Part shown: positions 5,001 to 48,030 of the stretch, piece by piece | Layout: each line of letters starts with the position of its first letter | How positions within the stretch are numbered: position 1 is the stretch's first letter | Assembly (NCBI GenBank): GCA_021157845.1 | Contig: JAGGVU010000006.1 | Coordinates: 4,070-68,069 of the forward strand | DNA from: Candidatus Aenigmatarchaeota archaeon | Lineage (GTDB): Archaea; Aenigmatarchaeota; Aenigmatarchaeia; GW2011-AR5; JAGGXF01 | DNA: 64,000 nt | Direction: 5' to 3' | Program-made: the position numbers and the translations under genes | Notes under the pieces: generated by a model | What the model was told of the DNA's origin: nothing | Seen by the model: only the letters and a program-made list of their open reading frames with translations | The model's database searches: none

Positions 5001-8000
5001 CCAACAGAGTCGCTTGCTTTTGCCTGCAAGCCGTAAGCTAATCCGTCTGTTGCTAATGTAGTATCCCAGTTAAATGTACATGATGGTCCTGTGCAACTTG
5101 GATTGGTCCATGTTTGACCGCCATCTGTTGAAACTTCAGCTGTTGAATAATCTATATGTGAATCAGACATTGTGAATGTTATTTCAACAATTCCTTTAAC
5201 GAACTGATTGTTTGAAGGTGTTGTAATTGATATAGCAGGCGGTGTATTATCAATATCTATAGTTCGCAATGGATCTATAGTTACATGACCTGCATAGTCA
5301 ACCATGCTAACTCTTATATAATATGTTCCATCTGCAACTTCTGTTGTGTCCCAGTGTACCTGATATTGCCATTGTGAACCAACAGGAGTTTTGGAAGCAT
5401 CCACATTTATTTTGTACCATGGTCCTGAATTGCTTGTTGAATATTCAAAGTCTGTTGCAACTACATCATTGTCAGAAGTTGTTGCTGTTATTTCTATTGT
5501 TCCGCTTACTGGTGATGTAGGAACATTAACCGTGAAACTTGGTGCTGTGCAGTCAACTATTATAGGAACTTCAGTCGAAGTTAATGAATTTCCTTCTCCG
5601 TCTGTTGCAGTCGCTTTTAACTTCGTCGCTCCGGTATGACTACAGGCATCAAAGCTCGCTGTCCAAGGAGCACTTGAATCTGTTGAAATTGTGTGCCAGC
5701 TTCCATCATAATATTCAAATCCAACACTTGCCACACCGCTTAATCTATCAGCTGTAACAGCTTGTATGGTTGTTGTTCCAGTCAAGTATTGGTCATGATA
5801 AGGATATGTAATTGCAATTGATTCTGCTCCCGTGTTATCAACACTGACAACTTTAACTTCTGACTCTCCTAGGTTGCCTGCAACATCATTTATTTTTGCA
5901 ATTATCGTATGTTCACCATCCTGGTAAGATGCTGTGTTCCACGTATATGTACATGAAGTTGCTCCACAACCAGTTGGTGAAACAGATATTCCATCAATCA
6001 ATAGGTCTGCGGTTGAGGTATCAATTGCATTATCAGCATATGTGAATGTTATAGCTATCGAACCACTAACAAACGTTGTTGTTGGTGTTGTAATTGAAAC
6101 AACAGGAATTGTTCTGTCAACAGTTATGCTTTTAACAGCAGACCATGGTCCAACATTTCCAAGTTTATCTACTGCTCTCACTCTAGCAAACCATGTTCCA
6201 TCTGTTGGTATGTTATTGAAAGATGCGAACAACGATGTTATTGGACCACTGCTTAACACGCCTGTCGTAAATGTCGAATCCATACTGACTTCTGCCTCAT
6301 AATAGTCAACACCTATTCCAGTATCTGTTGCTGCTGGCCAAGTTACGCTTATATCTCCATCACAGTCATATCCAGCATTGCAATTTGAAGATTGTGATGC
6401 ATATATAGATATCTGGCTTGGTGCTGTGTTGTCAATACCTACTGTAACAATGTCAGATTCTTGACAATAATTATTTATATCGCAAGCATAGGCTGTGATA
6501 TCGTGTGACCCATCTAATACAGTTGTTGTATCCAGACTAATATTCCATTTTTCGTCGCTATGATCGTTGTCTGTTCCTATATATGTTCCGTCAATCCTGA
6601 ATGTTACATTCGCAACACCAGAAGCGTCCCATGTATCAGCTGTCAGCTGGACTGTACCAGTTAACCAGTCACCTTCTTCTGGGCTGACTACGTGAACTTC
6701 TGGAGGAATGGTATCAACTAATATAGCATCTATAACAACCTGATACAGGCTGTCTATAACTATTCCATCTTTTGTATCAGCTTCATAACCTGGCTTTGAT
6801 ATGTGTATGTGAACTGGGTTGTCCACAGGTCCTGATAGTGCATTCAACGGATATAAAACAACACCGTTTGGTCCGTCTTCCCAGCTGAAATCCGGCAACC
6901 ACCACTGTTCTATGCTTCTATTTACTGTGCTGTTCCAGCCGTTTTCTCCGTCTGTTATGATGAACGTGTTCGTGTAGCCCAATCCTGACAAGCCATAGTC
7001 CATAGGTGATATGAACAATCTCATAGCCATATCTCCTTCTGTTGGTGTGCACTTGTCAGGAAGTATGTCTATGTAATAGCCTGGCTTGAACGTGTAGGAG
7101 AATCCCGAACCCGTACAATAATCTCCATCTGACACCGCAATAGGCGTATAGCCAACACCGGGTTTATATACTCCTATGGTGTTCCACCGGGCGTAATACT
7201 TTGGGTCTCCCAAACCAGTTCCTGGACAAAATGCGAAGTCGTAGACACCATATTCATATTTTAATTGCTTATCAAAACTATACGATGTACAACCAAGCAA
7301 CGAAACTGGCATGACTGTTCCACCGTTCTCGACACATTCCTGATAAGTCTGAGGACCTGTTCCAACAAGTGTAGGTCCATCACTAACCAGTTCCACAGGT
7401 ATCCAGCAGAAGTATTGGTCTGAGTCTGAAGGTGGTAATGTATGTCCTGAATCCTCAACAACTACTGTAAATCCTTCAATTGGGTGGTCAAACTGGTCGT
7501 AAGCATTGACTCTTAATGAATATGGCATTCCTGAACATTGTTGAGAAACTACACCATCAACAGGCCCTGTTGGTGCAAATGTATCACAAGTGACATTTCT
7601 GCTGAAATTTAATGCGGTCTGGTAATTACTTGATAATTCAATGTCATCTAACGCCTCATCCGGTCGTGTTGATATTCCATGCTTAGATGTTCCCCTTGTT
7701 ACATAACCGTCTTTCTTGATTTCAAGATAATAATCGCAGTTATTACCAATCGCTGGTATGTAATATTTCTGGGTTATCGGGTCCCAAACATAATCCACAT
7801 GTGGAAATTCATCATCTGGATCTGGGTCATCATCATAATAATAATCAGGTAAACCATCACCAGTTTTATAAGGTGCATAACATACAGGTGGATTTGGATC
7901 TGATGGATCTATTGGTATATCTGGATTCAAAACAATCCTTGCATCATATATCCTATGATTATATTCTGTTGTCTTTTCGTCCCAGATATCTAATTTCAAT

Positions 8001-11000
8001 GTATACAATAATCCATCTCCGTTCAATCTCTGTGGCGTATCATCGTCACAGTATGTTGCATAGGTAGTGTAACCGCCTTGTGATGGATCCAACGAGAATC
8101 CTCCAGCGACGTTGTTCTCATTTTTGACGCAATGTCTATCATAATCACCCCACATTACTGTCTTCTGGACGTTCGGGTCAGGTGTGACCTCTATATCTTC
8201 GTCAACGTAACCCGGACCGTGTGCTGTTAATGTTATTGAGGACGTACCTTTTATTGGTAAGAATAGGTCTGTGTCCCCATCTCCTCTTGGGTCGCCATAA
8301 TGGCTAGAGGTACCAGCAGCGTAATTGCGGCCTGTAGGATCTGCAATTCTTGTAGGATCGCTCACGTCGACATCTGTCTCTCCTATGACGAGGCCACCAG
8401 TGGAATCTGCTATATCTAACTTAGTACCCAATTCGTTGTAGATGTCAACAACTCTTATTGTGAACGGATTGTAATATTCATGATAATATTGTGCTTGGTC
8501 TGTAATAGTATCGCTGTCATATTGGTATACATAACCATCTAGATACTCTCTCATATCTACAGCAACACTTGCCGAATTTCCAAATCCGTATGCATCTCCT
8601 GGGCTGTATGCCCAATACATATATTCATCATTAGAGTTATCAGCATCACAGTAGCCTGTTTCTATTGGTGAACCAACAGTTGTGCCTTCTGTGCATGTCT
8701 GCACACCACCATTTGTAACTTTGAGTTCGTATCCTTCCTTAGGGTTGTTTAATTCATCAGAAGCTTTAACTTTTATAGTGTAAAGCATGGTAATATCGTT
8801 CGTAGTGTCTGAAGATATAGACTCGTCATTAATTGGATAATCTACCCAGCCTGTCTTCTCATAGAGGAAATCATAAGTTCCTGAAGCCAGGTATAATCTA
8901 TAAGACCCTCCAGAGATTGTATTAGTCCACATAGTTGCGTCTCCTGATGAGGAGCCTTCCCTTGCTGAGACCAAAACATTTGTCAGCCCGGTGTTTTGGG
9001 CTTCTTCTGTCACTATTCCGTCTTTCAAAACATCTAAATCTTCTGTTATTGTTCCGCCTTTTGTACTGTCATCAAAAACATGGTAAATTATATAATTATT
9101 AGATATATCAGCGTCTGTTATTTTCTTGCAGAATCCTCCCGGCATATAATCATGTGTTCCAGAGTTATCATGCAAATATTGCAGGAAGAATTGTGCATAA
9201 TCCGCATTGCTATAAAATCCGTTATCTGATGGGTGAACTGTTTCTGAACTTAACTTTGTGCTTCCACAATTGTAAGGAGTTCCATCAGAGTCATAAATTT
9301 CTATTGTATCACTTCCGCCTTCAAGATTGGAATGTGCTTCGCCAATTACTTCACCGACATCCATTTCCCAGGCATTTCCGCCTGTCGCTGATGACGCAAC
9401 AGGCCACTCAAATACTTTCTTTCCGTTAGAATCGCAGAAAACTGCATAATATGTTGAGTCGTCTGCTTTCATGTAAACTGTGTAATCAGGTGAGCCACCT
9501 GTTTGTATTAAATCAATATCATGTAAGTTTGAATTAGATGCCACTTCTGTCTCAGCAGCACTCCAGCTTACAGAACATCCTTGTCCTGAAATTGTCCATA
9601 ATTCTACCCATCCGTTATTTAAGTGCTCATCAACATCTCCTGATAATGAATCAATATTATTGGTATAAGTCCCAGCTGTGCTCCAGTCTTCGCCATATAA
9701 TGTGAACTCAAGACTTCCGCTCACATAGTATTGAACATCAACAGAACCATCAGTTATTGTAAACAATTTATATACATGGTCTGTATCAAAGTCTGCCGTG
9801 TATGCATCGCTGCCATCAATGGCTCCGTTTTGGTCAAGGTCAGCAGCTACTTTTGTTATATCTGTTGTTGCTTTTCCTGTTTTCTCAACAACCAAATCTT
9901 TTGTTTGTGCATAATTTGCGCCAATTGTGAAACCGTTTCCTCTTGAAGCTAAACTGTCAGATGTTGTTGCTTTGATATAATATGTTGTTGAAGTTGGATT
10001 TGTCTGGTCTGCTTCAAAGTATTGTGTATAATCTGGTGTACTTGTTCCTGTTGGATTTACTGTCTCACTGCTCAATTTGTTGCTTCCGCAATCGATTGTA
10101 TCCCAGACTTCTATTGTTCCGCCATACAAATCTGAATGCGTGTCTCCAGATAATTTTCCAACATTAAATACATCACCATCCAAGCTTCCTGTATTTGTTT
10201 GTTCTTGGTCTCTTGTCAATACTACTGGATTAGTATGGGCATCGTACCACCAGTTTCCGTTCAATGCACTAACAGAATCAAAGTACATCGCATAAACTGA
10301 TGGGATTGAGCCATCTGTTTCGGCAAGTGCAATTGTCCATGGAGTTGCGTCATGTAATGTAATTGTCTTAATGTCATTGTGTGTTGTTCCGGTCAGTCTA
10401 TTATCCAAGTTTAGGGTTATCATATCTCCGCCTGCTATTGCATCGATAGCATTGTTTGCGTTGTTTGTATCAACATCTAATCTCCATGACACAAGCGAAG
10501 CAGAATCTGTCATTTTCAAATCTATATTGTCAACATCTATCGGTGTCGCCAATGAGTCATCTGACTCTATGAAATAAACTTCATAACTATCTAAACCAGT
10601 ATCTCCAGAGTCTGTGTAGAAGCTTGTTGAGCTTAATAATGTTCCGCCAATTCTATCTGTGTAAACATCAAATCCTGCATTGTTGAAATTATCATTTACT
10701 GTTCCAGACAATTTTGCAACATCTATTGTGAATGTTTGCCCGCCTGCCTGATCCGTAAAACTCCATTTTAATACAACGTTTCCAGATTTACAGAATAGAA
10801 TATCATAAGTTCTGGAGTCGTCTTCAAAATAAAGTGTATACGAACCACTTGATGATGTTGTTTGAGTGTAATATAATCCTCCGCATGCACCGTCTGCATA
10901 TGTACTAGGTGCGGTGCCATACTCAAGTTCAACAGAATCTATGTCAGTTGGTATGGTACCAGTCACTTTTGAGATATCATTTGTGTATGTCGCTTCTGAT

Positions 11001-13822
11001 GGGAAACTATCATCTAATGTTAGCAATAAGCTTGGAGTAGAATCATAATAATTAACATCAACATTGTTGTCCACTATTGTGAATAAATGATATTTATATT
11101 CAGAGCCTGTGCTAACAACTTGCGTATATGCGTCATTGTCATCTGGCAAAGAACCATCCCAGTCAACCGCAACGTTTGCTATGTCAGATGTTACAACACC
11201 GGTTTTATCAGCAACTAAATTTTGAACAGCTGTCCCGCCAGCATTTGTTGAAAATGGGTTGCCGCATGTTGAGAAAGTGTCTCCATTGTTCATTATCGTA
11301 TTTATGTAGTACTGCTCATAACTTGGAGTAGTTGTTTCAAAATATTGCATATAATCGTTTGTTCCTCCAATATATCCATCATCATTAGGTTGTCTGTCTT
11401 CTGAAGATAGTTTATTTGTGCATAAAGAATCAGCATAAACTTCTATGTTATCTGAGCCGTCTCCACTATTTTCTAAATTAGAATGTGCGTCACCGACTAG
11501 TTTTGCAACATTAAAGGTTGCACTATTAAGTGTGTTTGAGTTTCCAGTCCAGCCTGTTCTTGTTCTGCTCAAAACAAGATTAGGTGTGCCTGCTGTGTAA
11601 AGTTCGTCATAAACATCTAAATACCAGTTAGAGCCGGTTATAGAATCAAAGTACATTTTATAAGTGTGAGGCCAAGTCCCTGTGATTACTAATTTAACGT
11701 AATCTCCATTTGTTTGTTCACTCAAAATTATATAATTAACACTAATTGGAAGTGTTCCTGTCAGAGTGTAAATCATGTCAAGCGTGATGTCATCTCCACC
11801 AGAAATTGTATCGGCTTTGTCTCCGTCGCTCGGATTATTATCAACATCCATCCTGAGTGTATATTCACTTGACCCAGAGTCGTCTTTGAAGTAGACATCT
11901 ACATTTCCGTCGGATAAAACACCACCATCCGTGGTTGGTGTGCATTCAAAATAAGCATAATAAGAATCGTCATTCGCTCCGCTATTATCTGTCACAAAAT
12001 ATAATGAATTTAACGGAGTTCCAGGATATGAATCATAAATCCATACCGGTGAGGTGCCACCGGTGTTGAAATTTTCATCTATATTTCCAGATAATTTTGC
12101 AACATCTAGTTGAATATTAGATGCAAACATTTTTGTTCTTGTTAACACTGTTTGCGTTGAGTCACGAAATTCTATATCTGTATTGCCTGACAAATCGGAA
12201 TACATCCTATAATTTCCGCTTCCGTCTGGAGTTGTCTTTGCATCTTTGAAATCATCCCAAAATCCAGCATCTTGATCGATATCAGTTTGTATAAGAGTTA
12301 TATCAGTATGAACAGTTCCATATAGTTTATCTTCTGGGCTGTATAGTATTTCATCACCTGCTGAAGCAGATGAGCCATAAACCATTGTATCGTAAGTTGG
12401 GCCATCAATCTTTACATAAGAGTTTGCTAAACCACCTGTTGCATCAAAATATACCTCATATTCCCCTGTTGAATCATCTGGATCACCGGGATAAGACGGA
12501 TCGCTTATTTTGGTTGTAAACGAAGAGTCAGAATAAACTTCTATTTTATAACCTGTTTTCAAATCATCGTGGGCAGTCCCGTAATATTTTGCTAGGTCTA
12601 GTTGGATATCATGACTTGAACAGGTTGTACTGCTTGTATCAGGGATTGATAAAGATTTTGTGAACACTTCGCTGCCACTTTTCCAGAATTTTATTGTTCC
12701 AACAAAATTATCTTTTACATACAGAGCATAATTTCCGCTTCCGTCTGGAGTTGTTTTATATGTTAATGTTCCGTCGCTGATACTGACTTCATCTATATCT
12801 GTTGGTACAGTACCATATACCTTCACAACAGCGTCCTGCGAGCTAAAGCCTAATGACAATCCTTCAATTAAAGTTGGATTTGTCGCTGCAGTCGAATGTA
12901 AAGCCATTGTAATTATTCCAGAAGAAGGATTATCATAATAAAGGGTATAGTCATCATCAGAATCATCATAACAATCACCATCAGTTACGTAAGACATTCC
13001 TATGTTATTTCCATCAGAATCCCATACGTAGAGAATTGTACCATCAAAATCATCATGTAAATCTCCTTGTGCTTTCGTATCAGGTGCAAAAGTGGGATAA
13101 ACAGCAAAATTATTATAACCATTGGCTGAAGTTACGTTTATTATTCTTCCGGTTGATTTTGTTGCATCAAATTGACAGACATTTGTCTGGTCATTATCTA
13201 AATAAACGTAAATATTATTTGAAACAATACTTTCATCAATCGGATACCATTGGTCATATTCAATATTACTACCGCCGATACCTCTTAATTCAGTGTCTAA
13301 TCTCGTTGAGCCATGACAAACAAAAACATTATCAGAGTTTAGGTCTGAATGTAGATTTGTACCTTTAACTCGTGCTAAATCAATAACATAAGTTTGTCCT
13401 TCGGTCACACTTTTAGAATACCACGTTCTTAGTACACCAGTAGCAGTTCCAAGACAATAGTAGACATAAACTGTCTGCGAAGGGCTTGCTGTTAAACTAA
13501 AAGTAAGTGAATAATCAACATCATCGTCATAATTTGTATTTCCAACTCCACTTGTCAAAGCTAAAAGATTGGTCCCAGTATCTGCACTCCCATCACATGG
13601 TCCAGTTTGCGATGCATCATAAATTTCAATAGTATAACTAACATTTGTATCAGGCAAATCACCTCTTACAACAACATTAGTTGCTTGTGCAAAAACTGCA
13701 GAGCTAACGCTAATAAGGGTAAGCATGAAAACTGCAAATAACACCGCAAATTTAGTTGAATCAGTTTTATTTTCAAATGTGTTATTCATTTTCACACCTC
13801 CGTTAAATATGTTAAATATCAT
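2075..13822 (-). CDS. Giant modular cell-surface protein (3915 aa) with an N-terminal signal/TM segment, many repeated beta-rich modules, Ig/FN3-like ~100-aa repeats and a C-terminal TM anchor.
   Basis: Single 11.7-kb ORF with a GGAGGTG RBS 12 nt upstream of the ATG at 13822. The N-terminal hydrophobic segment is [23 protein letters not shown]. Repeated modules are visible in the translation (VAKLSG..NFN..G, KLSSE..., DNTPPxISITTP / DTTPPSV / [12 protein letters not shown] / [12 protein letters not shown]). The C-terminus is ...[43 protein letters not shown] (TM helix plus basic tail). Confidence 0.85.
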
Positions 13823-25298: not shown

Positions 25299-26309
25299 TT
25301 AAGATGATAAAAAATCATACACCGCCTTTTGCATTCCAGCTGTCTTGTATTTTTTATATTTATCAATGGTCTTGAGAATATATAATATTATCTCTGCTCC
25401 TTTTTTAGGATAATATTCGTTTATAAAAGCATCTGACTCGATTTGCAAAACGATTGGATTTCCCTTTAAAATAAACCTTTTGGGTGCAAAAGAAACCGAG
25501 CCTGAAAAAATGCGCTCAACTGTTATTTTTGGGCTACCTATGTTTTTCATTGTATTTTTAACAGCTCTTAAAAAATTATTTTTTGTAAAATTGGACCGCA
25601 TTTCTTCAAAATATTTTTTTTCTGCGTTCTTTTTTATTATATTTACCTCTTTTGATAAAATCCATGAATATTTTTTCTTGACATCAGCCAAAGATGACTG
25701 CTTCAATTCAAGGGAAGATAAAATTTGTTGCTCTCTGTTTATTATTTCAAGTTGAAAGTTTTTTGCTATTTTTCTAAAAAAAAGATTATACTTTTTATTG
25801 GCAATGCCTATTATTTTTTTCAGCACCTTTTTATCTATCCCAATACCATTAAATGTTATAAAATCCATTATGCTTGGATAATTTTTCAGAAGTGCAAACT
25901 TTCTATGAATTATTACAAATATATTGCCACTTGACTTAGCGCTGGACCAAAAGTTTGAATAGATTTTCTTTTTTTTATTATAATCAGCATCACTTTTTGC
26001 AACCCAGGCATATTTTGACAAATATGCCTTTGATATGGCATTTGGGTTCATTTGTATTTTTTTCCACATGCTCAATGCTTCCTGCTTTGGAGGGATATCT
26101 CTGTTCAGGTCTATCCCGTAAAATGGGTCACGCGGCATATTAGAAATTAGAAGCGAGCCGTTCATCTTTTCAAAACAGAAAGAAGCTACCCTATCTGCTC
26201 CGTCATCTCTCCCCTCACCGCCCAACGCTGGACCAGAGTGCGGAACAATAAATACAGGGCCTTCTCCCTTTTTATATATACTAAAGCCCGGCCTGAATGC
26301 GAAATACAT
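25299..26309 (-). CDS. Hypothetical protein (336 aa) with an N-terminal PHSG..GGEGRDDGADRVA motif and a Lys-rich C-terminal half; possibly an amidohydrolase-like enzyme
   Basis: ORF only; weak motif resemblance. Confidence 0.4.
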   Translation of the reverse strand: MYFAFRPGFSIYKKGEGPVFIVPHSGPALGGEGRDDGADRVASFCFEKMNGSLLISNMPRDPFYGIDLNRDIPPKQEALSMWKKIQMNPNAISKAYLSKYAWVAKSDADYNKKKKIYSNFWSSAKSSGNIFVIIHRKFALLKNYPSIMDFITFNGIGIDKKVLKKIIGIANKKYNLFFRKIAKNFQLEIINREQQILSSLELKQSSLADVKKKYSWILSKEVNIIKKNAEKKYFEEMRSNFTKNNFLRAVKNTMKNIGSPKITVERIFSGSVSFAPKRFILKGNPIVLQIESDAFINEYYPKKGAEIILYILKTIDKYKKYKTAGMQKAVYDFLSS

Positions 26310-26477
26310 GATTAATTATTGAAGTCTGGAGAATAAAAAATTAGTGGGGCCAGGAGGATTTTCACCAACCTTTTCTTTGATATTAAGTTTCTTTTCGAAA
26401 GGGTTGGGTTTGAACCCCCATTAACAGGTTTCTTCTTTTTCATCTGGTCGTCAGACCATCAACGCTCCAGTCAGATT

Positions 26478-26600
26478 GACGCTTTTTTTAAAAAGGGTCA
26501 ATAGTTTTTTTTGTTGTTTTTCCGTTGACGCTTTTTTTTAAAAAGGGTCAATAGTTTTTTTTGTTGTTTTTCCGTTGACGCTTTTTTTTAAAAAGGGTCA
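26478..26600. repeat. Tandem direct repeat, ~50-bp unit x 2.5 (family A: GACGCTTTTTTT(T)AAAAAGGGTCAATAGTTTTTTTTGTTGTTTTTCCGTT)
   Basis: Near-identical copies at about 26478-26527, 26528-26577 and a partial copy to about 26600; they differ by one T in a T7/T8 run. Confidence 0.9.
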
Positions 26601-26643
26601 GCTGGAGCCTGCCATCCATCTATCCCTTTAAGCTTTTTCACGC

Positions 26644-26764
26644 GTTAGCAAAAAGGGTTTTGTGCTTAGTTCGTTTTTCCGTTAACGCTTTTTGCATTAG
26701 CAAAAAGGGTTTTGTGCTTAGTTCGTTTTTCCGTTAACGCTTTTTGCATTAGCAAAAAGGGTTA
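26644..26764. repeat. Tandem direct repeat, 52-bp unit x 2.3 (family B: TTAGCAAAAAGGGTTTTGTGCTTAGTTCGTTTTTCCGTTAACGCTTTTTGCA), related to family A
   Basis: Identical copies at about 26645-26696 and 26697-26748 plus a partial third. Shares the CCGTT[GA]ACGCTTTTT...AAAAAGGGT core with family A. Confidence 0.9.
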
Positions 26765-26831
26765 CCAGGTTAGATTATGGCCCCACGTTAACAAATATGT
26801 AAAAGAAATATTTATATAACTTTATTGACAT

Positions 26832-27911
26832 TCATATAACTTTTATAAGGTCTGTACCGGGCTTTTCTCCAATTTTAGGAATTTTAAATAATCTATCTAC
26901 AGATGGCTTTTTTTTCATTCTATCTTCTAAATCCCTTTTATTTTTAGCCTCAATTCTATTAATATAGTATAGATAATCCCAGAGAAGCGATTCCTGATTG
27001 TACTCTGGCAGTGGCTCTTTTCCCCTTTTACCTGTTTTCAAAACATTAAATCTGAGCTTGTCTGCGTAGTCAACACACTCCTTTGTGGGATATAAAAATA
27101 TTGGCGCAGAAATAAATTTTTTATCTTCCTCTTTAAGTGATTGATAAAAAATTTCATGCTCTGCAGCAACAATATGCTTGCAGTTGACAAATGGGTATCT
27201 TCTCTGCCTGTGGTTTATGTGCCAGAAATATCTTGAGCTTTCGCACGGACAAAGGCCGTGAAAATCAACTGAATAATCATAAATATCCAGCCCATATTCA
27301 TCTTTGTTTCCTCCAGCTTCTGCATCAGATGATATAATTGGCTGGGATAATATTGCTAACAAAAAAGTCCGTTCACCTGAATCTGAAGGAACTTCTGCAA
27401 CGAATTCATGTGTACATTCTTTAAAAGTGTTTATTGTGATTTTTTCATCTGTTAAATCTGAGTTAAAAAATTCGTATAATTCTGCTCCTTTTATTAGATA
27501 AGAAAGTGTGTTAACAACATAACATTTATAGCTGGATTGATGGCCAAACATAGAATAAACCCGTCTCTTTTCAGATTTCTCAAAATCCTTTAGATTATTC
27601 CTAACCAAATGGGACAGATAGTTTCTTATCGGCCCATTTTTATCACGAACCTTAACATTCCTTTTCTTTCCCTTGGTTTTCCATTTTTCCGGTGTTATTT
27701 TATTTAAAGCTCTTTCTAAAAAACTCTTTGGAACAAATTCATAATCTTTTGGTACTACAAAAAATTCATCTTCCTCTAGTTCAGATATGACTTTTACAAT
27801 ATTCCTTGGTATTGGGTTATCTATATCTATTTTTTCTTTGCCTTCCTTTATCTGACTAACATTCCAAGGCTCAAACCATTTTTCTCTTGGCAAATCTGTA
27901 TCTATTATCAT
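26832..27911 (-). CDS. Hypothetical protein with a SWIM-type zinc-finger-like motif (CxC-x20-CxH)
   Basis: GLCPCESSRYFWHINHRQRRYPFVNCKHIVAAEH; no other recognisable domain. Confidence 0.45.
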   Translation of the reverse strand: MIIDTDLPREKWFEPWNVSQIKEGKEKIDIDNPIPRNIVKVISELEEDEFFVVPKDYEFVPKSFLERALNKITPEKWKTKGKKRNVKVRDKNGPIRNYLSHLVRNNLKDFEKSEKRRVYSMFGHQSSYKCYVVNTLSYLIKGAELYEFFNSDLTDEKITINTFKECTHEFVAEVPSDSGERTFLLAILSQPIISSDAEAGGNKDEYGLDIYDYSVDFHGLCPCESSRYFWHINHRQRRYPFVNCKHIVAAEHEIFYQSLKEEDKKFISAPIFLYPTKECVDYADKLRFNVLKTGKRGKEPLPEYNQESLLWDYLYYINRIEAKNKRDLEDRMKKKPSVDRLFKIPKIGEKPGTDLIKVI

Positions 27912-27941
27912 AATAGTTAATTGGAAGAAAATCTTTTATTC

Positions 27942-28469
27942 TTACCATGGAACGTCTTTTATGCGAGAATAATAGGCAAAAAGGTTTGTAAGCCAGTGCA
28001 ATATTGGAGTTATTATAACTAAAATCAATATGTTTACAGAGCTTAGTTTATAGACAATGGATACAAAAACAAGTGCTCCTACCAAAAAATCTAACTGGTC
28101 CAGCAATGGTGCAGGTCTTCCACGGTCAATCCTGAATCTTCTTTTCAGAAATGAGCCAGCTATATCACCAACTACAGCACCGCTGCTTAAAAGAAAAATT
28201 ACGCTGTATGTTGGCGGTATAAGGGTTAGGCCAAAAAAGCTCTGAAAATCACTGAAAAAATACATCTGAATCAGCCCACATAAGCAACCAAAAACTATTC
28301 CACCAATAGCACCTTCTATTGTCTTCCCGTCTCCAAGAATTCGCGCTTTTTTCAACTTTTTTTTAAAATCAATGGGATGCCTCCCTCTTAAAAGCGGAGG
28401 AGAAGCATTTGCAATGTAAGCTGGGAGTATAAACCAAAGTGCTCTAACCAATTCAGCATACGTAAACAT
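27942..28469 (-). CDS. carS: CDP-archaeol synthase (CarS)
   Basis: About 170-aa, 5-TM protein with the CarS motif GDIAGSFLKRRFRIDRG...LDQLDF. Confidence 0.7.
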   Translation of the reverse strand: MFTYAELVRALWFILPAYIANASPPLLRGRHPIDFKKKLKKARILGDGKTIEGAIGGIVFGCLCGLIQMYFFSDFQSFFGLTLIPPTYSVIFLLSSGAVVGDIAGSFLKRRFRIDRGRPAPLLDQLDFLVGALVFVSIVYKLSSVNILILVIITPILHWLTNLFAYYSRIKDVPW

Positions 28470-28582
28470 TCTAACACCATTTTATCTAATTAAACGGTCT
28501 TAAATTTAATAAGCTTAATAGGTTATAAGTATAAAAATGAATAGCCACATGATTATAAAAATGTTTTGTTAAATAAGAATTC

Positions 28583-29059
28583 ATGGCTTTTCAATTTTTA
28601 ACAGGCCCAATTCTCCAAACAACCGGGTATCTCAGCCTGATTATAATCAATTTTATTGGCTGTGCCTCAATAATCTTTCCTGTACCAAATTTTCTAAGTG
28701 TATTTACAATGGGCGCTGTTATGAACCCGTTCCTGGTTGCGTTATTTTCCTCAATAGGCGCAGCTTTTGGTGAACTGATTGGATATGGCGTTGGATATGG
28801 CGGTAAAAGGGTCATAAAAAGAGGTGATAAATACATCAAACGTGCCAAAAGATGGATGAAAGAACACAGCGGTTTCTTAGTGATAATTATATTTTCAGCA
28901 ACGCCTCTGCCGACAGATATTATTGGAATCTTGTGCGGCGCAATGAAATATGATATAAAGAAATTTTTCCTAGCTGTCTGGATTGGCCGGTTTTTGATGT
29001 ATTTAGTCCTTGCATATGCCGGATATTACGGAATAACGTGGGTGACTAAGATTATATGA
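28583..29059 (+). CDS. DedA/VTT-domain (SNARE-associated) membrane protein
   Basis: DedA-like pattern with TM helices and a GYGVGYGGKR loop. Confidence 0.6.
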   Translation: MAFQFLTGPILQTTGYLSLIIINFIGCASIIFPVPNFLSVFTMGAVMNPFLVALFSSIGAAFGELIGYGVGYGGKRVIKRGDKYIKRAKRWMKEHSGFLVIIIFSATPLPTDIIGILCGAMKYDIKKFFLAVWIGRFLMYLVLAYAGYYGITWVTKII

Positions 29060-29493
29060 CAAGCAGGAAAAAAATAATTGTGAAAGAAGTTCCTATAGAA
29101 GAAGTTGTGAAGGTTAATAGAACAATAAAAGAATTTGAGCCATATGAGAAAGAATACTTTGAGAAGAATGTTTTGAGATTAGTCATCGTTGCTTATGTAG
29201 GTGGACAGCCAGCAGGGTATATTGTTGGTTATGACAAATTTAAGGATGGCTCTTTCTACTGCTGGATGGCTGGTGTAAATCCAAAATTCAGAAGAATGGG
29301 CGTGATGAAAGCACTAATGTCTTATCAGGAAAAATGGGCCAAAAAGAATGGTTATAATAAAATAAAAATAAAAACAAGAAATAACAGAAGAGAGATGCTT
29401 TCATATCTGATCAAATATGGATTTTATATAATCGGCCTGACTAAATATCCAGATGTCAAAGATAATAAAATTCTTTTTGAGCGAAGTATTTAA
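29056..29493 (+). CDS. GNAT-family N-acetyltransferase
   Basis: Acetyl-CoA binding motif (NPKFRRMGVMKALM) and GNAT fold length; ATGA overlap with the upstream gene. Confidence 0.65.
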   Translation: MTSRKKIIVKEVPIEEVVKVNRTIKEFEPYEKEYFEKNVLRLVIVAYVGGQPAGYIVGYDKFKDGSFYCWMAGVNPKFRRMGVMKALMSYQEKWAKKNGYNKIKIKTRNNRREMLSYLIKYGFYIIGLTKYPDVKDNKILFERSI

Positions 29494-29532
29494 GACAATT
29501 TTTAAATTTATCTATTTGATATATTTAATTAT

Positions 29533-29754
29533 GCCCCCATAGTGTAGTTAACCCCTTTCTGCTTGTGCAAAAGCGGAAAAATCTAAAATGGATAGCACGA
29601 GAGGTTGCGGTGAACCTTTTTAGAAAGCTTCAATGGAAAAATTCAAAGGATTGGTAGAAACCTCTTATCTCGGGTTCAAATGAACCTTTTTAGAAAAAAG
29701 CTTCAATGTAAAAAAATATTATGTGAAAAGGCTCTGAAATTCCCGATGGGGGCA
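29533..29754 (+). tRNA. tRNA-Arg (anticodon GCG) with three introns (D-loop, anticodon loop, T-loop)
   Basis: GCCCCCA-TA-GTGT-AG[intron]TGGATA-GCAC-G-AGAGG-TTGCGGT[intron 29612-29660]CCTCT-TATC-TCGGG-TTCAAAT[intron 29682-29741]CCCGA-TGGGGGC-A. The anticodon-loop and T-loop introns share a 30-nt sequence (GAACCTTTTTAGAAA(AAA)GCTTCAATG.AAAAA). Confidence 0.65.
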
Positions 29755-29784
29755 TTCTTTTAAGTCTATGGCATATAATTAATA

Positions 29785-31071
29785 ATGGTGTCTATGATGA
29801 CACAAATCCAAAATGCTATAGACAAAAAAACAACAAAAGAAATGGAACAAGTTGCAAGAGATGAAAATATTGATGTTTCTTCTTTGAGAAAAAAAGTAGC
29901 AGAAGGGAAAATTGTTATCCCAGCCAATGTTAAGCACAAGAACTTAAGGCCTATTGGAATTGGTCTTGGCCTGAAAGTGAAGGTTAATGCGAACATTGGC
30001 ACATCTCCAGTAAAATCTGATTTAGAAACAGAACTAAAGAAATTAAAAGTTGCCACAGACGCAGGTGCTGACACAATAATGGACTTGAGCACTGGTGGAG
30101 ATTTAGATAAAATAAGAAAAGAAATAATTAAAAATTGTAATATTCCATTAGGCACTGTTCCAATATATCAGACAGCAGCGGAAGTTGGAAAAATAGAAGA
30201 TATGAATATAGATAATTACTTAAAAGTATTTGAAAAACATGCCAAAAGTGGTGTTGATTTTGCAACAGTTCACGCAGGAGTAACAGAAAAAGCATTTCCA
30301 TTAATTAAAAACAGAGTAATGAGTTGTGTTAGCAGAGGCGGATCATTTCTACTAGCATGGATGGAGAGGCATAAAAAAGAAAATTTCCTGTATGAGCATT
30401 TTGACGAAATCTTGGATATCGCCAAAAAATATGATATCACCTTAAGTTTAGGAGATGGGTTAAGACCAGGCTGTCTTGCTGATGCAACTGATAAGGCCCA
30501 AATTCAAGAACTTAAAATTTTAGGAAAATTGGGCCAGAAAGCAAGAAAAAAAGGAGTTCAGGTGATGATTGAAGGGCCGGGCCACATACCATTGAATGAA
30601 ATTGAAAAAAATGTTAAACTGGAGAAAAAATACTGTAATGGTGCACCATTTTATGTTTTAGGGCCGTTGCCCACAGATATTGCTGTGGGATATGACCATA
30701 TTGCCGGTGCGATTGGTGGAGCACTGGCTGCATGGAAAGGAGCAGATTTCCTTTGTTATTTAACACCTAAAGAACATGTAGGATTGCCAGATATCGACGA
30801 CGTAAGAGACGGTGTTATAATAACAAAAATTGCTGCTCATGTCGCGGATATTGCCAGAGGATATGAAGAAGCAATTTTGAGAGATAATGAGATGGCGAAA
30901 GCAAGAGAAAAAATTAATTGGGATGAAATGCTAAAATATGCGATTGACAAAAAAAGGTTTGTTGAATTGAGAAGAGAAGAATGTGAAAAAAATCCTCAGC
31001 TTGAAAATGTAAAATATTGTTCCATGTGCGGGCCATTCTGCGTTTTTAAGGTTTATAAAAGGAAAAAATAA
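29785..31071 (+). CDS. thiC: Phosphomethylpyrimidine synthase ThiC (radical SAM, thiamine biosynthesis)
   Basis: ThiC signatures (VNANIGTSP, TIMDLSTGG, MIEGPGHIP) and the C-terminal CSMCGPFC cluster motif. Confidence 0.85.
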   Translation: MVSMMTQIQNAIDKKTTKEMEQVARDENIDVSSLRKKVAEGKIVIPANVKHKNLRPIGIGLGLKVKVNANIGTSPVKSDLETELKKLKVATDAGADTIMDLSTGGDLDKIRKEIIKNCNIPLGTVPIYQTAAEVGKIEDMNIDNYLKVFEKHAKSGVDFATVHAGVTEKAFPLIKNRVMSCVSRGGSFLLAWMERHKKENFLYEHFDEILDIAKKYDITLSLGDGLRPGCLADATDKAQIQELKILGKLGQKARKKGVQVMIEGPGHIPLNEIEKNVKLEKKYCNGAPFYVLGPLPTDIAVGYDHIAGAIGGALAAWKGADFLCYLTPKEHVGLPDIDDVRDGVIITKIAAHVADIARGYEEAILRDNEMAKAREKINWDEMLKYAIDKKRFVELRREECEKNPQLENVKYCSMCGPFCVFKVYKRKK

Positions 31072-31219
31072 TCCCTGATATGTCCTATATTTATATAATT
31101 TGATTTAGAGCCTCTTTATCAAGATTCGTATCATATCAGCCAACAACTTTTGCTATTGAGTGAAAAATATTTTAGCGTCTTCTTATCGCGCCATTTCTAG
31201 TTTCAGACAAATAAAAAAC

Positions 31220-33400
31220 CTATGCAATTTCTGCATCTGTTCGCAGGCCCTTCCTGTTTCGGATATTCGATTTAACCTTTTCATATAAGACCTTTGGCAA
31301 GAACTCAAACTTAACATCTATTAATGAATAAAATCCTTTGCCACCTGTAGCTGATTTTAACGAGGCTTCAAATCCGAACATTTCCGCAACTGGCATTTTT
31401 GCCCGTATTATGGCAACGCCCTGCTCGTTTTCAACATTTTCAACCTGACCGCGTCTGTTCTGAATTTCAGACATAACATTTCCCATTAATTCTTCTGGTG
31501 TATCGACTCTAATAATTTGTATAGGTTCAAGAAAAGTTGGCTCTGCATTTATGATAGCAGTTTTTATTGCTTCTCTTACAGCAGGATAAACCTGAGCAGG
31601 CCCTCGATGAATAGCATCTTCGTGCAACTTAGCATCTACTATTTTGACTTTGACAGCACTTAATGGCTCTCGCGCAAGAGGCCCTTCCTTGCAAACAGAT
31701 TCAAATGCATCTAAAACAAGTTCCATAGTTTCTGTTAAATATTGAATTCCTTTTGTCGCATCTATGAAAAGGTTTCTGTTATAAATGTCTAGGCATTTTT
31801 TTGCTTCCTCTTTTGGAAGCCCGTACTCCTGCAAAATAGGCGCCAGCTCTTTTGTCCTTTTTACGCGACCTTCCGGAATCTTGTCGTCTGCTATTGCCTC
31901 GTAAATTTCTCGCTCAAGAGGCTCCACAACCATATAAAACCTGTTGTGCTTGTTTGGCGACTTTCCTTCTATTTCGTTGCTAATACCTCTAACAGACTCT
32001 CTGTAAACAACTATAGGAGGCGATGTTGTAACATCAATTCCACTCTCCCTTAACGGCCTTTCTATTTTTGCATCTATATGGAGTTCACCAAGCCCAGAAA
32101 CAAGATATTCACCTGTTTCTTCATTTATAGTTATTTTTAGTGTCGGATCCTCTCTGCTTACCTGCCTCAAAAAATTAATCAACTTTGGAAGGTCTTTTGG
32201 ATTTTTTGGCTCAATAGACTTTGTTACAACAGGCTCAAATATGTGCTTTATAGATTCAAATGCATGCAATGTTGCACCCTGCTCTGTTACAGTTTCGCCA
32301 GAAAATGCATCTGTTAATCCTACAACACCAATTATATTCCCCGATGGTATTTCATCCATTTGTATGCGCTGGGCGCCTTTATAAATTGAAACCTGCTGAA
32401 GCCTCTGGTCTTTTGCTTGGCCAATAAGATGAACCATCTGCCCTTTATGTGCAGTGCCTGAAAATATTCTACAGGTTGCCACAATACCAGCATGCGGGTC
32501 TGGAACAACCTTTGTCACAATCATTGATAGCTGCCCGGACGGGTCGCATGACGTCATTTGTTTTCCAACTTCTGAATTAATATCACCGTGCCAAATTTTT
32601 TCTATCCTATATTTTTGTGCTTCTATCGGATTCGGTAAATGTTCTATAACCATATTTAATACTATTTTATGCAAAGGAGCTTTTTTTGCAAGCTCTTTAT
32701 CCTTATCTTGCGAGCAATAATCAACTATATCTTTGAAAGTTATTTTATATTCTTTCATAAAAGGAAAAGAAATTGCCCAGTTTCTATAGGCAGAGCCGAA
32801 TGCAACAGATCCGTCCTCTACTTTGACTATCCAGTCTTTTGCAAACTGTTTTTCACTATACTTTTGTATAAGCATATTTGTTGTTTTAATAATTTTTGCA
32901 AACCTTTCCTGCATCTGTTCTGGCGTAAGTTTTAACTCTTTTATAAGCCTGTCAACCTTGTTTATAAAAAGCACGGGTTTTACCCGTTCCTTCAAAGCCT
33001 GCCTTATAACAGTTTCTGTCTGTGGCATTACACCCTCAACAGCACAGGCAACAATAACAACACCATCAACAGCACGCATGGCTCTTGTTACATCTCCGCC
33101 AAAATCAACATGACCTGGAGTATCTATAAGATTAATAAGATAATGATCATCTTTGTAAGGGTGAATCATAGAAACATTAGCAGAGTAAATTGTTATTCCA
33201 CGCTCCTGCTCCTGTTTGTCAAAATCTGTCCACAATGCTGTCCCAGCTATTTCTTCAGAAAGCATGCCTGCTCCGGCCAACAGATTGTCTGTTAACGTTG
33301 TTTTGCCATGATCAATATGAGCAGCTATTCCTATGTTCCTTATATGTTTTGGTTTTTTCATCAGTTCTGTTAATTGTTCTGTCAAAGATTTTTTTGCCAT
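31220..33400 (-). CDS. fusA: Translation elongation factor 2 (aEF-2)
   Basis: GTPase motifs (AHIDHGKTTLTD, DTPGHVDF, NKVD) and the diphthamide loop HEDAIHRG; 726 aa. Confidence 0.95.
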   Translation of the reverse strand: MAKKSLTEQLTELMKKPKHIRNIGIAAHIDHGKTTLTDNLLAGAGMLSEEIAGTALWTDFDKQEQERGITIYSANVSMIHPYKDDHYLINLIDTPGHVDFGGDVTRAMRAVDGVVIVACAVEGVMPQTETVIRQALKERVKPVLFINKVDRLIKELKLTPEQMQERFAKIIKTTNMLIQKYSEKQFAKDWIVKVEDGSVAFGSAYRNWAISFPFMKEYKITFKDIVDYCSQDKDKELAKKAPLHKIVLNMVIEHLPNPIEAQKYRIEKIWHGDINSEVGKQMTSCDPSGQLSMIVTKVVPDPHAGIVATCRIFSGTAHKGQMVHLIGQAKDQRLQQVSIYKGAQRIQMDEIPSGNIIGVVGLTDAFSGETVTEQGATLHAFESIKHIFEPVVTKSIEPKNPKDLPKLINFLRQVSREDPTLKITINEETGEYLVSGLGELHIDAKIERPLRESGIDVTTSPPIVVYRESVRGISNEIEGKSPNKHNRFYMVVEPLEREIYEAIADDKIPEGRVKRTKELAPILQEYGLPKEEAKKCLDIYNRNLFIDATKGIQYLTETMELVLDAFESVCKEGPLAREPLSAVKVKIVDAKLHEDAIHRGPAQVYPAVREAIKTAIINAEPTFLEPIQIIRVDTPEELMGNVMSEIQNRRGQVENVENEQGVAIIRAKMPVAEMFGFEASLKSATGGKGFYSLIDVKFEFLPKVLYEKVKSNIRNRKGLRTDAEIA

Positions 33401-33521
33401 TAAACCACCTTTCCATTAAAATTCTAAATTGTCTCAAAATACATATTATAAAACTGTCACTCTTTTAAAGATTTTGCCGTGACAGAACTAAGATTAAAAC
33501 TAAAAATTTAAAAGGTTATCA

Positions 33522-45076: not shown

Positions 45077-45270
45077 TGGGCCCGACGGGATTCGAATTCG
45101 CGGGCTGCATTACAGCAATGCGGTGCAGCCTCCCGCGACACCCGGCTTAAAAGGCCGGTGCTCTAGCCAGATTTCCCGAAACAATTACGCAGGTAATATG
45201 CATCTTTTCTCCAGAGCTTTGATCTCTTTGATTGGCGATTGAGTCAAAGATCCGCCTGAGCTACGGGCCC
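45077..45270 (-). tRNA. tRNA-Lys (anticodon UUU) with two non-canonical introns (D-loop and T-arm)
   Basis: Minus strand: GGGCCCG-TA-GCTC-AG[~87-nt intron]TCTGGCT-AGAGC-A-CCGGC-CTTTTAA-GCCGG-GTGTC-GCGGG[35-nt intron]TTCGAAT-CCCGT-CGGGCCC-A. Confidence 0.7.
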
Positions 45271-45273
45271 AAG

Positions 45274-45441
45274 CGCCCTAGCCGGGATTTTCACCAACCT
45301 TTTCTTTTCCCATCCAAGGCTTTTCTTTTTTAAAAGAAAAGGGTTGGATTTGAACCCGGGTCGCAGCCTTTCTGCTTTTGGTAAACCTTTTCAAAAGGCT
45401 GGTCGACAGGGCTACATGCTAGTCCACTACACCACCAGGGC
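45274..45441 (-). tRNA. tRNA-Asp (anticodon GUC) with an anticodon-loop intron and a T-loop intron
   Basis: GCCCTGG-TG-GTGT-AGTGGACTA-GCAT-G-TAGCC-CTGTCG[intron]A-GGCTG-CGAC-CCGGG-TTCAAAT[intron CCAACCC...GGTGAAAAT]CCCGG-CTAGGGC-G. Only 3 nt separate it from tRNA-Lys. Confidence 0.65.
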
Positions 45442-45613
45442 ATATCCTATGAAATTAAATTTAAACTATTAATAATTTTCTTTTTTCATCAAAACTCATC
45501 TAAAGGCTATAGCACTAACTAATTTATTAAAAATTCTATAATTGGTAAGATAAAGGAAAGTACTAATAACTCTAAAAATCCCAATAAACATCATATCCCT
45601 CTGATAAGCATAA

Positions 45614-45731
<118 letters not shown>

Positions 45732-45943
45732 TAAACAATTTAAGCCGAAATACATTTAAACCTTTCGGAACCCGTTTTTGTGTGGTGATGCAAGAAATAT
45801 CTGCAGATATTAGAAACCTGTATCAAATATTTTGCTTAAAACATTAAGTAAAAGCTCACGCAGTTGCTGCTTATAAAAATATGGAGTTTGCCATCGTAAA
45901 ACAAACTAGACAAAAATGCGTAGTTACATAATTAAAAAAAAAT

Positions 45944-46167
45944 CCCGCGAGTGAGATTTTCACAACTTTTCTCTTTTCCATTCAAGATTTTCTCTTTTTA
46001 AAGAGAAAAGGTTGAGTTGAACTCACAACCTTTCGGTCTCTGAGCGATTGCTGGAATCGTGTATGGCAAAGCAATACACGCTACAGCCGAACGCTCTGCC
46101 AATTCTCCAAACCCATTAATGGCTTTTGCCAATGTTCTTAAAGGGTTGTGATTGAGCTATCGCGGGA
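45944..46167 (-). tRNA. tRNA-Tyr (anticodon GUA) with three introns (D-loop, canonical 37/38, T-loop)
   Basis: CCCGCGA-TA-GCTC-AA[intron]TTGGCA-GAGC-G-TTCGG-CTGTAG[intron]A-CCGAA-AGGTT-GTGAG-TTCAACT[intron CAACCTTTTC...GTTGTGAAAAT]CTCAC-TCGCGGG-A. Confidence 0.65.
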
Positions 46168-47829: not shown

Positions 47830-48030
47830 AGCCCCAGGCGAGAGTTGAACTCGCGACCTTTACCTTTCCAAGGGACAACCTGTGGTTCCCCTTTTTGTTT
47901 TTGCTAAAGATTTTACGCGAAGCGTAAAATGCTTGTTACCAAGGTAACGCTCTGCCAATTTCCCTGACTGCTTTCCGCTGGCGCTTTTTTTTGTTCGCGA
48001 AGCGAAAAGGGCCAACTGAGCTACTGAGGC
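47830..48030 (-). tRNA. tRNA with D-loop and anticodon-loop introns; anticodon probably GGU (Thr) if the intron is at 37/38, alternative UGG (Pro)
   Basis: GCCTCAG-TA-GCTC-AG[~58-nt intron]TTGGCA-GAGC-G-TTACC-TTGGTA[~70-nt intron]A-GGTAA-AGGTC-GCGAG-TTCAACT-CTCGC-CTGGGGC-U. Confidence 0.5.

Follow-up and report, generated by a model that had tools for sequence, protein, structure and literature searches.

A hairpin module shared by two introns of an archaeal tRNA-Arg gene and dispersed among assemblies labelled as DPANN

The stretch of DNA analysed here, hereafter the window (64,000 nt, positions 4,070 to 68,069 of contig JAGGVU010000006.1 in assembly GCA_021157845.1 of a Candidatus Aenigmatarchaeota archaeon), harbours a tRNA-Arg(GCG) gene that is broken by three insertions, two of which begin with nearly the same sequence. 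The parts of this gene are listed below, where arrows mark splice junctions and h, H and h' denote helices of bulge-helix-bulge (BHB) motifs.

29533-29754, forward strand: tRNA-Arg(GCG) gene with three insertions; exons 29533-29549, 29590-29610, 29660-29680 and 29741-29754
29550-29589, forward strand: D-loop insertion of 40 nt, between positions 17/18 or equivalently 16/17; its removal is needed to restore the D-loop AGTTGGATA
29611-29659, forward strand: anticodon-loop intron of 49 nt at site 37/38; h AGAGG/CCTCT, H TTGC/GTAG, bulges GG↓T and AA↓A
29681-29740, forward strand: T-loop intron of 60 nt at site 59/60; h TCGGG/CCCGA, H TTCA/TGAA, bulges AA↓T and AT↓T, h' GAACC/GGCTC

When segments 29550-29589, 29611-29659 and 29681-29740 are removed from the 222-nt locus, a canonical 73-nt tRNA-Arg(gcg) remains, which is accepted by ARAGORN. 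The acceptor stem consists of 7 bp (GCCCCCA/TGGGGGC), all tRNA arms are recognisable by eye despite the interruptions, and the minimum free energy fold of the unspliced 222-nt precursor retains the acceptor, D, anticodon and T stems. In particular, nucleotide 38, the 3' side of the anticodon stem, the variable loop, the 5' side of the T-stem and positions 54-59 of the T-loop all come from the segment flanked by the repeats (29660-29680). The locus is an archaeal tRNA-Arg(GCG) gene of working type. A preliminary description of the locus had placed the repeat correctly and had recognised two introns flanking exon segments, although it omitted the third insertion in the D-loop and set both introns one nucleotide too far downstream. 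The anticodon-loop intron, given there as 29612-29660, is moved by the BHB rule to 29611-29659, so that nucleotide 38 is A and not T, while the shift of the T-loop intron from 29682-29741 to 29681-29740 leaves the mature sequence unchanged.

The two introns that carry the repeat were assessed with a BHB score (maximum 15), for which every possible junction pair was rated for a 4-bp central helix, two 3-nt bulges and flanking helices. At the junction required by the cloverleaf the anticodon-loop intron reached 13/15, a value equalled by a random junction pair at a frequency of 1e-4, and the T-loop intron reached 14/15, the highest value in the gene, equalled at a frequency of 4e-6. Both insertions are BHB introns, and they are presumably cut by the tRNA splicing endonuclease, with subsequent ligation of the exons.

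The repeat shared by these introns comprises two blocks, 29611-29626 with 29681-29696 (16 of 16 positions identical) and 29624-29641 with 29697-29714 (17 of 18). In the local alignment TGAACCTTTTTAG and AAAGCTTCAATGGAAAAA, separated by a gap, stand against TGAACCTTTTTAGAAAAAAGCTTCAATGTAAAAA, with matches at 30 of 31 aligned bases and one 3-nt indel. The alignment score of 48 compares with 14.1 ± 2.8 in 5000 shuffles (maximum 37), none of which attained it, and the claim that the same sequence of about 30 nt occurs at two positions within one tRNA-Arg gene is thus borne out. Exact occurrences of the 15-mer GAACCTTTTTAGAAA in the 64 kb are confined to the two Arg intron sites. Both copies were recognised by the covariance model R1 of a wider family of hairpin modules, which was trained on copies from other genomes only; its E-value for copy 1 refers to the window plus L118, a related contig described below.

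29611-29641, forward strand: module copy 1, TGAACC-T5-AG-AAA-GCTTCA-ATGGAAAAA; R1 23.4-25.7 bits, E = 5.6e-4
29681-29714, forward strand: module copy 2, TGAACC-T5-AG-AAAAAA-GCTTCA-ATGTAAAAA; R1 28.6-30.4 bits, E = 2.4e-5

Both Arg copies possess TGAACC/GCTTCA where the family consensus is TAACCC/GCGTTA, that is, two base pairs are altered on both sides with retention of a C·C mismatch, and their hairpin tips are identical. Such shared derived states, together with the same tip, favour common descent or gene conversion over convergence, and on sequence grounds the 31-34 nt common to both introns are two paralogous copies of one hairpin module. The 5' part of one Arg intron would have been copied into the other site, by duplication or gene conversion. 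The preliminary description took the repeat as direct evidence of intron duplication or transposition; the paralogy stands, but the module is present in many genes and genomes, and part of the likeness between the introns is therefore conservation at the level of the family.

A comparison with a close relative was provided by the metagenome contig L118, the only match to the 21-mer of exon 2, which is 97.1% identical to window positions 25369-33520 (8.2 kb). Its tRNA-Arg gene contains all three insertions, and all exons as well as the D-loop insertion are identical to those of the window, whereas the two other introns differ. The L118 anticodon-loop intron has an extra AAA, by which its 5' part becomes identical to the first 28 bases of the T-loop copy of the window, and its H partner is GCAG rather than GTAG, a change from a G-U to a G-C pair. 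The L118 T-loop intron carries the hairpin tip GCGCTGAAAATAGGC in place of AG, as well as TGGA and AA↓T in place of TGAA and AT↓T, and still forms a BHB. The two Arg copies may still be exchanging or losing sequence.

The sequence is AT-rich, the gene ends 30 nt before thiC, and standard tools are blind to the tRNA; these features would suit a different view, in which the region would be a single long intron, a leader or riboswitch of thiC, or a tRNA pseudogene in decay, and the repeat would be a low-complexity coincidence. ARAGORN, run on the unspliced 64-kb window with default or intron options, reported no tRNA, and with relaxed scoring it gave a single mis-called tRNA-Gly that is actually tRNA-Thr(GGT). 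Rfam 15 searched over the window at gathering score yielded 5S rRNA only, with no tRNA family and no match to the module. Nevertheless, we regard this view as very improbable. The segment between the repeats completes the cloverleaf, which contradicts an alternative fold as one long intron or leader; the repeat score exceeds that of every shuffle; and all six tRNA genes of the window share the interrupted style. Moreover, constant exons combined with introns that vary while keeping their structure exclude an artefact of assembly as well as a pseudogene or a single long intron. The warning in the preliminary description that the locus upstream of thiC could be mistaken for a riboswitch is apt, as Rfam cmscan with E up to 10 over 26300-29800, a region with at least eight module copies, found no thiamine pyrophosphate (TPP) riboswitch, small ribozyme or box C/D match, and its sole output was two weak snoRNA-like chance matches outside the Arg introns.

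As regards thiC itself, the TATA-like ATATAATTAATA is situated immediately 5' of the first ATG (window 29755-29800) and leaves no space for a leader. The thiC mRNA may be leaderless, possibly starting at a downstream ATG (29797 or 29800). An exact look-up of the ThiC protein yielded no recorded match.

The module of which the Arg introns carry two copies has the form T-AACCC-TTTT-(1-30 nt)-AAAA-GCGTTA-ACGGAAAA with the tail A(C/T)GGAAAA, and includes the inverted arms TAACCCTTTT/AAAAGCGTTA. Its bounds are set by conservation, which ends sharply at the preceding T (89%) and the following A (89%). Across 66 aligned copies taken from other genomes the outer stem is near-invariant, with a C·C mismatch between C-G pairs, while the inner part covaries as a helix: both sides differ in 85 cells, compared with 33.8 ± 6 in shuffles (0 of 500 reached this number), and 91.9% of cells are paired, against at most 59% with slid partners. 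Long inserts fold at -4.1 kcal/mol, compared with -1.2 kcal/mol for shuffled ones. Where the outer stem departs from the consensus TAACCC/GCGTTA, the changes are compensatory and the mismatch is kept, namely TGAACC/GCTTCA in Arg, TGACCC/GCGTCA in the anticodon-loop intron of tRNA-Trp and GGCCC/GCGCC in tRNA-Thr. The right half AAAAGCGTTAACGGAAAA is near-invariant across assemblies labelled as different phyla, although the pattern used to collect copies permitted 32 variants. Literature searches by motif string and by topic (DPANN tRNA introns, repeats) found no description of the module. A K-turn, an H/ACA or box C/D RNA and an integron attC site were considered as its identity and dropped, the sequence features that define them being absent.

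The distribution of the module was assessed by scanning one genome per species for the pattern AACCYTTTT-N(1-30)-AAAGCKTYAAYGKAAA, with labels taken from record titles. At least 117 stretches were found, none of the listed ones from the genome of the window itself. About 113 fall in archaeal assemblies, most of which bear DPANN labels: at least 26 in Woesearchaeota, at least 24 in Aenigmatarchaeota, at least 13 in Micrarchaeota or Micrarchaeia, at least 4 in Iainarchaeum and at least 14 in the assembly CAYJTA01, with smaller numbers for the remaining archaeal labels among the matches listed. Two bacterial stretches and two in apparent coding sequence were taken as chance matches, and a scan of 2.9 million viral contigs gave one match, which is intergenic. 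Using a crude tRNA finder, at least 45 of the 131 copies among the matches listed were located inside tRNA genes (38 sense, 7 antisense) and 6 in tRNA flanks, with 80 left unclassified. Some copies are located in tRNA 3' trailers, and two lie inside large subunit (LSU, 23S) rRNA genes (L089, 2640-2677, and L097, 6605-6640, both on the reverse strand); the former is a short insertion in the conserved CTCTTAAGGTAGCG region, and the latter is identical at 39 of 40 positions to the D-loop copy in the tRNA-Trp gene of the window. Intergenic copies show no orientation bias relative to neighbouring genes, which, read by eye, look like unrelated housekeeping genes. Tandem arrays occur within tRNA introns of Iainarchaeum, Micrarchaeota and Aenigmatarchaeota assemblies as well. 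The module family is shown here with its structure and distribution.

In the assembly CAYJTA01 (L012, L020, L034, L035, L046, L052, L072, L080, L092, L098 and L103) the module forms part of a 112-nt element, of which about 14 near-identical copies are found, their flanks being unrelated. This element consists of the module followed by 56 nt with the TATA-like TTTATATA and the end motif TTCACTTTA, and several of its copies lie 2 nt from a divergent start codon. Woesearchaeota stretches (L062, L074, L075, L095, L108 and L112) contain intergenic clusters of two or three adjacent, diverged module-like units, with right halves such as AAAAGTTTAATCAAAA, AAAAGCTTAACCAAAA and AAAAACGTTGACGAAAAG, which suggests that the family is broader than the scan pattern.

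Unconstrained brute-force splicing with ARAGORN produced many spurious solutions in the loci of other genomes and was abandoned, and a few of them were spliced by hand. A tRNA-Arg(GCG) (L063), a tRNA-Thr(CGT) (L043) and a tRNA-Thr(TGT) (L025) were resolved, each with the module at 37/38. The first of these belongs to another, distant lineage and has only the 37/38 intron, with a perfect BHB: the left arm of the module is fully complementary to AAAAGGGTT, a segment that begins within the tail A-run, and the H partner GCAA comes next, so that a textbook motif results. In the sense copies of anticodon-loop introns the module stands in a fixed register to the 5' splice site (N37↓T-AACCC or T36-A37↓A-CCC), and a complement of the left arm after the tail A-run is commoner in sense intron copies than in copies outside tRNA genes (mean run 1.39 versus 0.40). 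In L117, when read as tRNA-Asn(GTT), the entire 37/38 intron is the reverse complement of the module, a reading that requires a second, 13-nt insertion in the D-loop, while the alternative given by ARAGORN is an 86-nt tRNA-Leu(TAA).

These structural and positional data would also be expected if the module were an RNA motif under selection for a function, such as the binding of a processing, chaperone or splicing-associated protein, and resided in the removed parts of stable-RNA precursors, in which case the two Arg introns would be alike mainly since both need the motif. In its favour are the near-invariance of the right half across phylum labels, the maintenance of the stem and the C·C mismatch by compensatory changes, the sense orientation of 38 of the 45 copies in tRNA genes, and the occurrence of copies in tRNA introns, rRNA introns and tRNA 3' trailers. 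Less readily accommodated are the seven antisense copies in tRNA introns, along with the reading of L117 in which a whole intron is reverse-complement module, as well as the many intergenic copies that have unrelated neighbours and no orientation bias. The private derived states and hairpin tip shared by the Arg copies are not required by constraint on a motif, and no Rfam match appeared at E up to 10. On balance a functional motif seems a rather doubtful explanation, yet one to be taken seriously.

An origin as the end hairpin of an IS200/IS605-type element (single-strand DNA, HUH transposase), or as a REP/PATE-like derivative of one, with BHB introns being created by insertion, appears still a little less probable. 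Such elements would account for an imperfect palindrome whose conserved mismatch would tell the two strands apart, for copies in both orientations and for the lack of any target-site duplication visible by eye. In addition, one copy (L085, 3101-3129, reverse strand) begins exactly at the TAA stop codon of a TnpB-like open reading frame (ORF; 3128-4324, reverse strand), and CACTTTA, which also ends the 112-nt element of CAYJTA01, follows 78 nt later; this single case hints at a link to IS200/IS605-type hairpin elements. However, it is the one TnpB-like ORF in the 117 listed loci, called by eye without a domain search, and no TnpA was seen, although no systematic domain scan of neighbouring genes was made. 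A second end is missing from most copies, which are single hairpins, nothing but a T at -1 (89%) stands out in the 5' flank, where no clear target motif emerges, and a single match in the viral contigs is likewise little for an element of this type.

The search for further copies proposed in the preliminary description brought the module to light in other tRNA genes of the window, all on the reverse strand. Module-related sequences were first picked up there by relaxed sequence searches, and the copy in the T-loop intron of tRNA-Tyr was first revealed by the search with R1.

26340-26784, reverse strand: tRNA-Trp(CCA), three introns (D-, anticodon- and T-loop); T-loop intron 26359-26408, BHB 15/15; ARAGORN on spliced candidates
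26645-26763, reverse strand: tandem module array (Tandem Repeats Finder, period 52) in the tRNA-Trp D-loop intron
26476-26600, reverse strand: tandem module array (Tandem Repeats Finder, period 50) in the tRNA-Trp anticodon-loop intron
45077-45270, reverse strand: tRNA-Lys(TTT), two introns (D-loop and T-arm), both without module; ARAGORN on spliced candidates
45274-45441, reverse strand: tRNA-Asp(GTC), two introns, anticodon-loop 45370-45403 and T-loop 45288-45348, the latter with module (R1 E = 3e-4); BHB 15/15; ARAGORN on the spliced form
45943-46166, reverse strand: tRNA-Tyr(GTA), three introns; T-loop intron 45957-46015 with module (R1 45974-46015, E = 1e-5), BHB 14/15; ARAGORN on the spliced form
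47830-48030, reverse strand: tRNA-Thr(GGT), two introns (D-loop and anticodon-loop); D-loop module copy 47971-48014 (R1 E = 2e-3); ARAGORN on spliced candidates

With tRNA-Arg, splicing tests with ARAGORN give six tRNA genes in the window, none of them uninterrupted, with 15 introns in total; all six had been missed by ARAGORN and Rfam in the unspliced sequence. In tRNA-Trp R1 detects five full copies (E = 1e-11 to 6e-10) and one partial copy (E = 4e-4). BHB scores depend on position: the introns at 59/60 of Arg, Trp, Asp and Tyr reach 14-15/15, the anticodon-loop introns mostly 9-13 and the D-loop introns 6-10. Three of the genes, all multiply interrupted, form a cluster with 5S rRNA on the reverse strand (45077-46166: tRNA-Tyr, 5S rRNA at 45615-45728, tRNA-Asp and tRNA-Lys), in which the gap between Asp and Lys is 3 nt. 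The 3' part of the Trp anticodon-loop intron (26430-26480, reverse strand; GCGTTGATGGTCTGACGACCAGATGAAAAAG) contains strings resembling C and D boxes and a 7-nt complement (CTGGAGC) to the anticodon-loop exon, without an Rfam match, and recalls the box C/D guide that tRNA-Trp introns carry in other archaea.

The tRNA-Trp gene is also present in L118 (6801-7238), where its arrays have the same copy number as in the window but different units, 48 instead of 52 nt and 40 instead of 50 nt. Units are identical inside each strain and different between the two, and the arrays are read as products of local slippage or unequal exchange with rapid homogenisation, a pattern that amounts to concerted evolution inside introns. 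A rolling-circle origin was rejected, given that the repeat unit is the module plus spacer and not the whole intron. The T-loop intron of the same gene measures 50 nt in the window and 77 nt in L118, a net difference of 27 nt, and its h' helix is built from CCAACC/GGTTGG in one of the strains and from CAAATCC/GGTTTG in the other, a compensatory replacement. Judged by these two strains, intron turnover is fast.

Taken together, the data are most probably explained by a BHB-interrupted tRNA-Arg gene whose introns hold paralogous copies of a module that is itself a dispersed DPANN repeat entering RNA genes. In the proposed course of events, the tRNA splicing endonuclease would cleave the precursor tRNA at both 3-nt bulges, after which the exons would be ligated. 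The left arm of the module would pair with a distal AAAAGG(G)TT-like segment, whose start lies in the tail A-run, and would so provide the helix h' on the intron side, adjacent to the 5' splice site, while the central 4-bp helix would arise from pairing between the last exon bases and a short gene-specific segment further 3'. As a member of a dispersed repeat family, the module would enter intergenic DNA as well as tRNA and rRNA genes, in both orientations and most likely at the DNA level, would persist in RNA genes only where it can be spliced, and after entry would undergo local tandem amplification and homogenisation. We infer both the supply of the intron-side helix by the module and its spread at the DNA level, the latter because of the antisense copies, the copies outside RNA genes, the near-identical copies in different genes and genomes and the approximately 14 copies in CAYJTA01.

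Several results weigh against this explanation. No target-site duplication was seen by eye in the loci, nor a pair of empty and filled sites, nor a transposase partner; and a selected RNA function would account equally well for the extremely conserved 18-nt right half, for the conserved C·C mismatch and for the 38:7 bias towards sense copies. The unclassified 80 of 131 copies reflect the crude finder used for the loci. As a blind or genome-wide detector the BHB score is weak, shuffled genes attaining 13-14 somewhere in most trials, and the BHB argument therefore rests on the match with junctions fixed by the cloverleaf. A splicing endonuclease gene is not among the window ORFs that were annotated (20 of those with at least 100 aa), and the genome of the organism was not searched for one. 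Finally, neither a strict nor a relaxed BHB was found for the D-loop insertion of tRNA-Arg, which scores 6/15 and 4/15 at the only two junctions that restore the D-loop, and its match to R1 is weak (8.2 bits), aligning as a module without TTAAC.

This D-loop insertion may be a degenerate module copy lacking TTAAC, although its similarity to the other two Arg introns is not significant (p about 0.06 and 0.34). In its predicted fold the 3' junction lies within a small hairpin. The same junction (TCTAAAAT↓GG, 29582-29591) is complementary at 9 of 10 positions to CCTTTTTAGA, which occurs at 29615-29624 and 29685-29694 and is common to both module copies in the other two Arg introns; this could be chance, or a long-range pairing that aids removal of an insertion without BHB.

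A stronger version of the favoured explanation can be entertained only tentatively, and we do not expect it to prevail: the module might be a self-propagating hairpin element that inserts as DNA and brings with it the helix that turns its site into a BHB substrate, the C·C mismatch and the tail then being the recognition site of a mobilising enzyme.

Outside the RNA genes, the window contains on its reverse strand a giant ORF of 3915 aa (2075-13822) with many bacterial Ig-like domains (Big_13, Big_7 and Big_3_3), followed by a beta-helix/TSP3 protein. The former resembles the giant surface proteins that small-celled archaea commonly have.

On the origin of non-canonical archaeal tRNA introns, the best earlier evidence is the similarity among introns in Thermoproteales. 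The present locus provides a far more tractable system in this respect, its module being a compact and alignable unit of defined structure, with copies inside and outside introns and in both orientations, with turnover visible between strains of 97% identity, and with representatives in many assemblies labelled DPANN; a model of the module could serve to find hidden tRNA genes.

Among known mobile sequences, REP/PATE and IS200/IS605 end hairpins are short imperfect palindromes with conserved mismatches, which occur in many dispersed copies, sometimes clustered, without target-site duplications. The module differs from them in having copies inside RNA genes at spliceable positions and a conserved single-stranded tail, and no Y1 transposase was found. 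As for a MITE or DNA transposon, inverted arms and, in CAYJTA01, about 14 near-identical copies were observed, with neither a target-site duplication visible by eye nor an empty site. Eukaryotic introner elements are transposon-like sequences that create spliceosomal introns in bursts of intron gain. The module resembles them as a repeated element whose insertion would yield a removable intron, but the excision would be carried out by a protein endonuclease acting on a BHB and not by the spliceosome, and the hosts are RNA genes, so that the likeness is one of analogy only. If the module did prove to be self-propagating, it would be an archaeal counterpart of introners and a direct, ongoing source of new archaeal introns.

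Closer to the present case are the disrupted tRNA genes of archaea. The parts consulted of two papers on ARMAN and other DPANN lineages describe multiple and non-canonical tRNA introns together with splicing endonucleases of broad specificity (PMC3239211, PMC5829648), and one of them suggests that incomplete DPANN tRNA sets point to unidentified disrupted tRNA genes (PMC5829648). The window agrees with these accounts in its multiple, non-canonical introns and adds a conserved intron module, which those parts do not describe (PMC3239211, PMC5829648). Given that all six of its tRNA genes escape ARAGORN and Rfam, the incomplete sets may reflect interruption of this type. For Thermoproteales, two further sources report tRNA genes with as many as three BHB introns, at canonical as well as non-canonical sites (PMC4033280, PMC10714607), and similar introns recurring across tRNA genes and positions, which were interpreted as intron transposition and gain (PMC4033280, PMC10714607, summarising Fujishima et al. 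2010). The window shows the same kind of significant intron similarity, between positions within Arg and between the Trp, Asp, Tyr and Thr genes of one genome. Set against those accounts, the present host has AT-rich DNA and probably belongs to DPANN, its introns share a compact module that is found across assemblies labelled as several phyla, and copies occur also in antisense, in rRNA introns, in tRNA flanks, in intergenic DNA and as tandem arrays in introns. Paralogous BHB introns are thus a phenomenon already known from Thermoproteales; new here is the conserved hairpin module beneath them, which is set apart by how widely it occurs, by its two orientations, by its copies outside introns and by its amplification in tandem.

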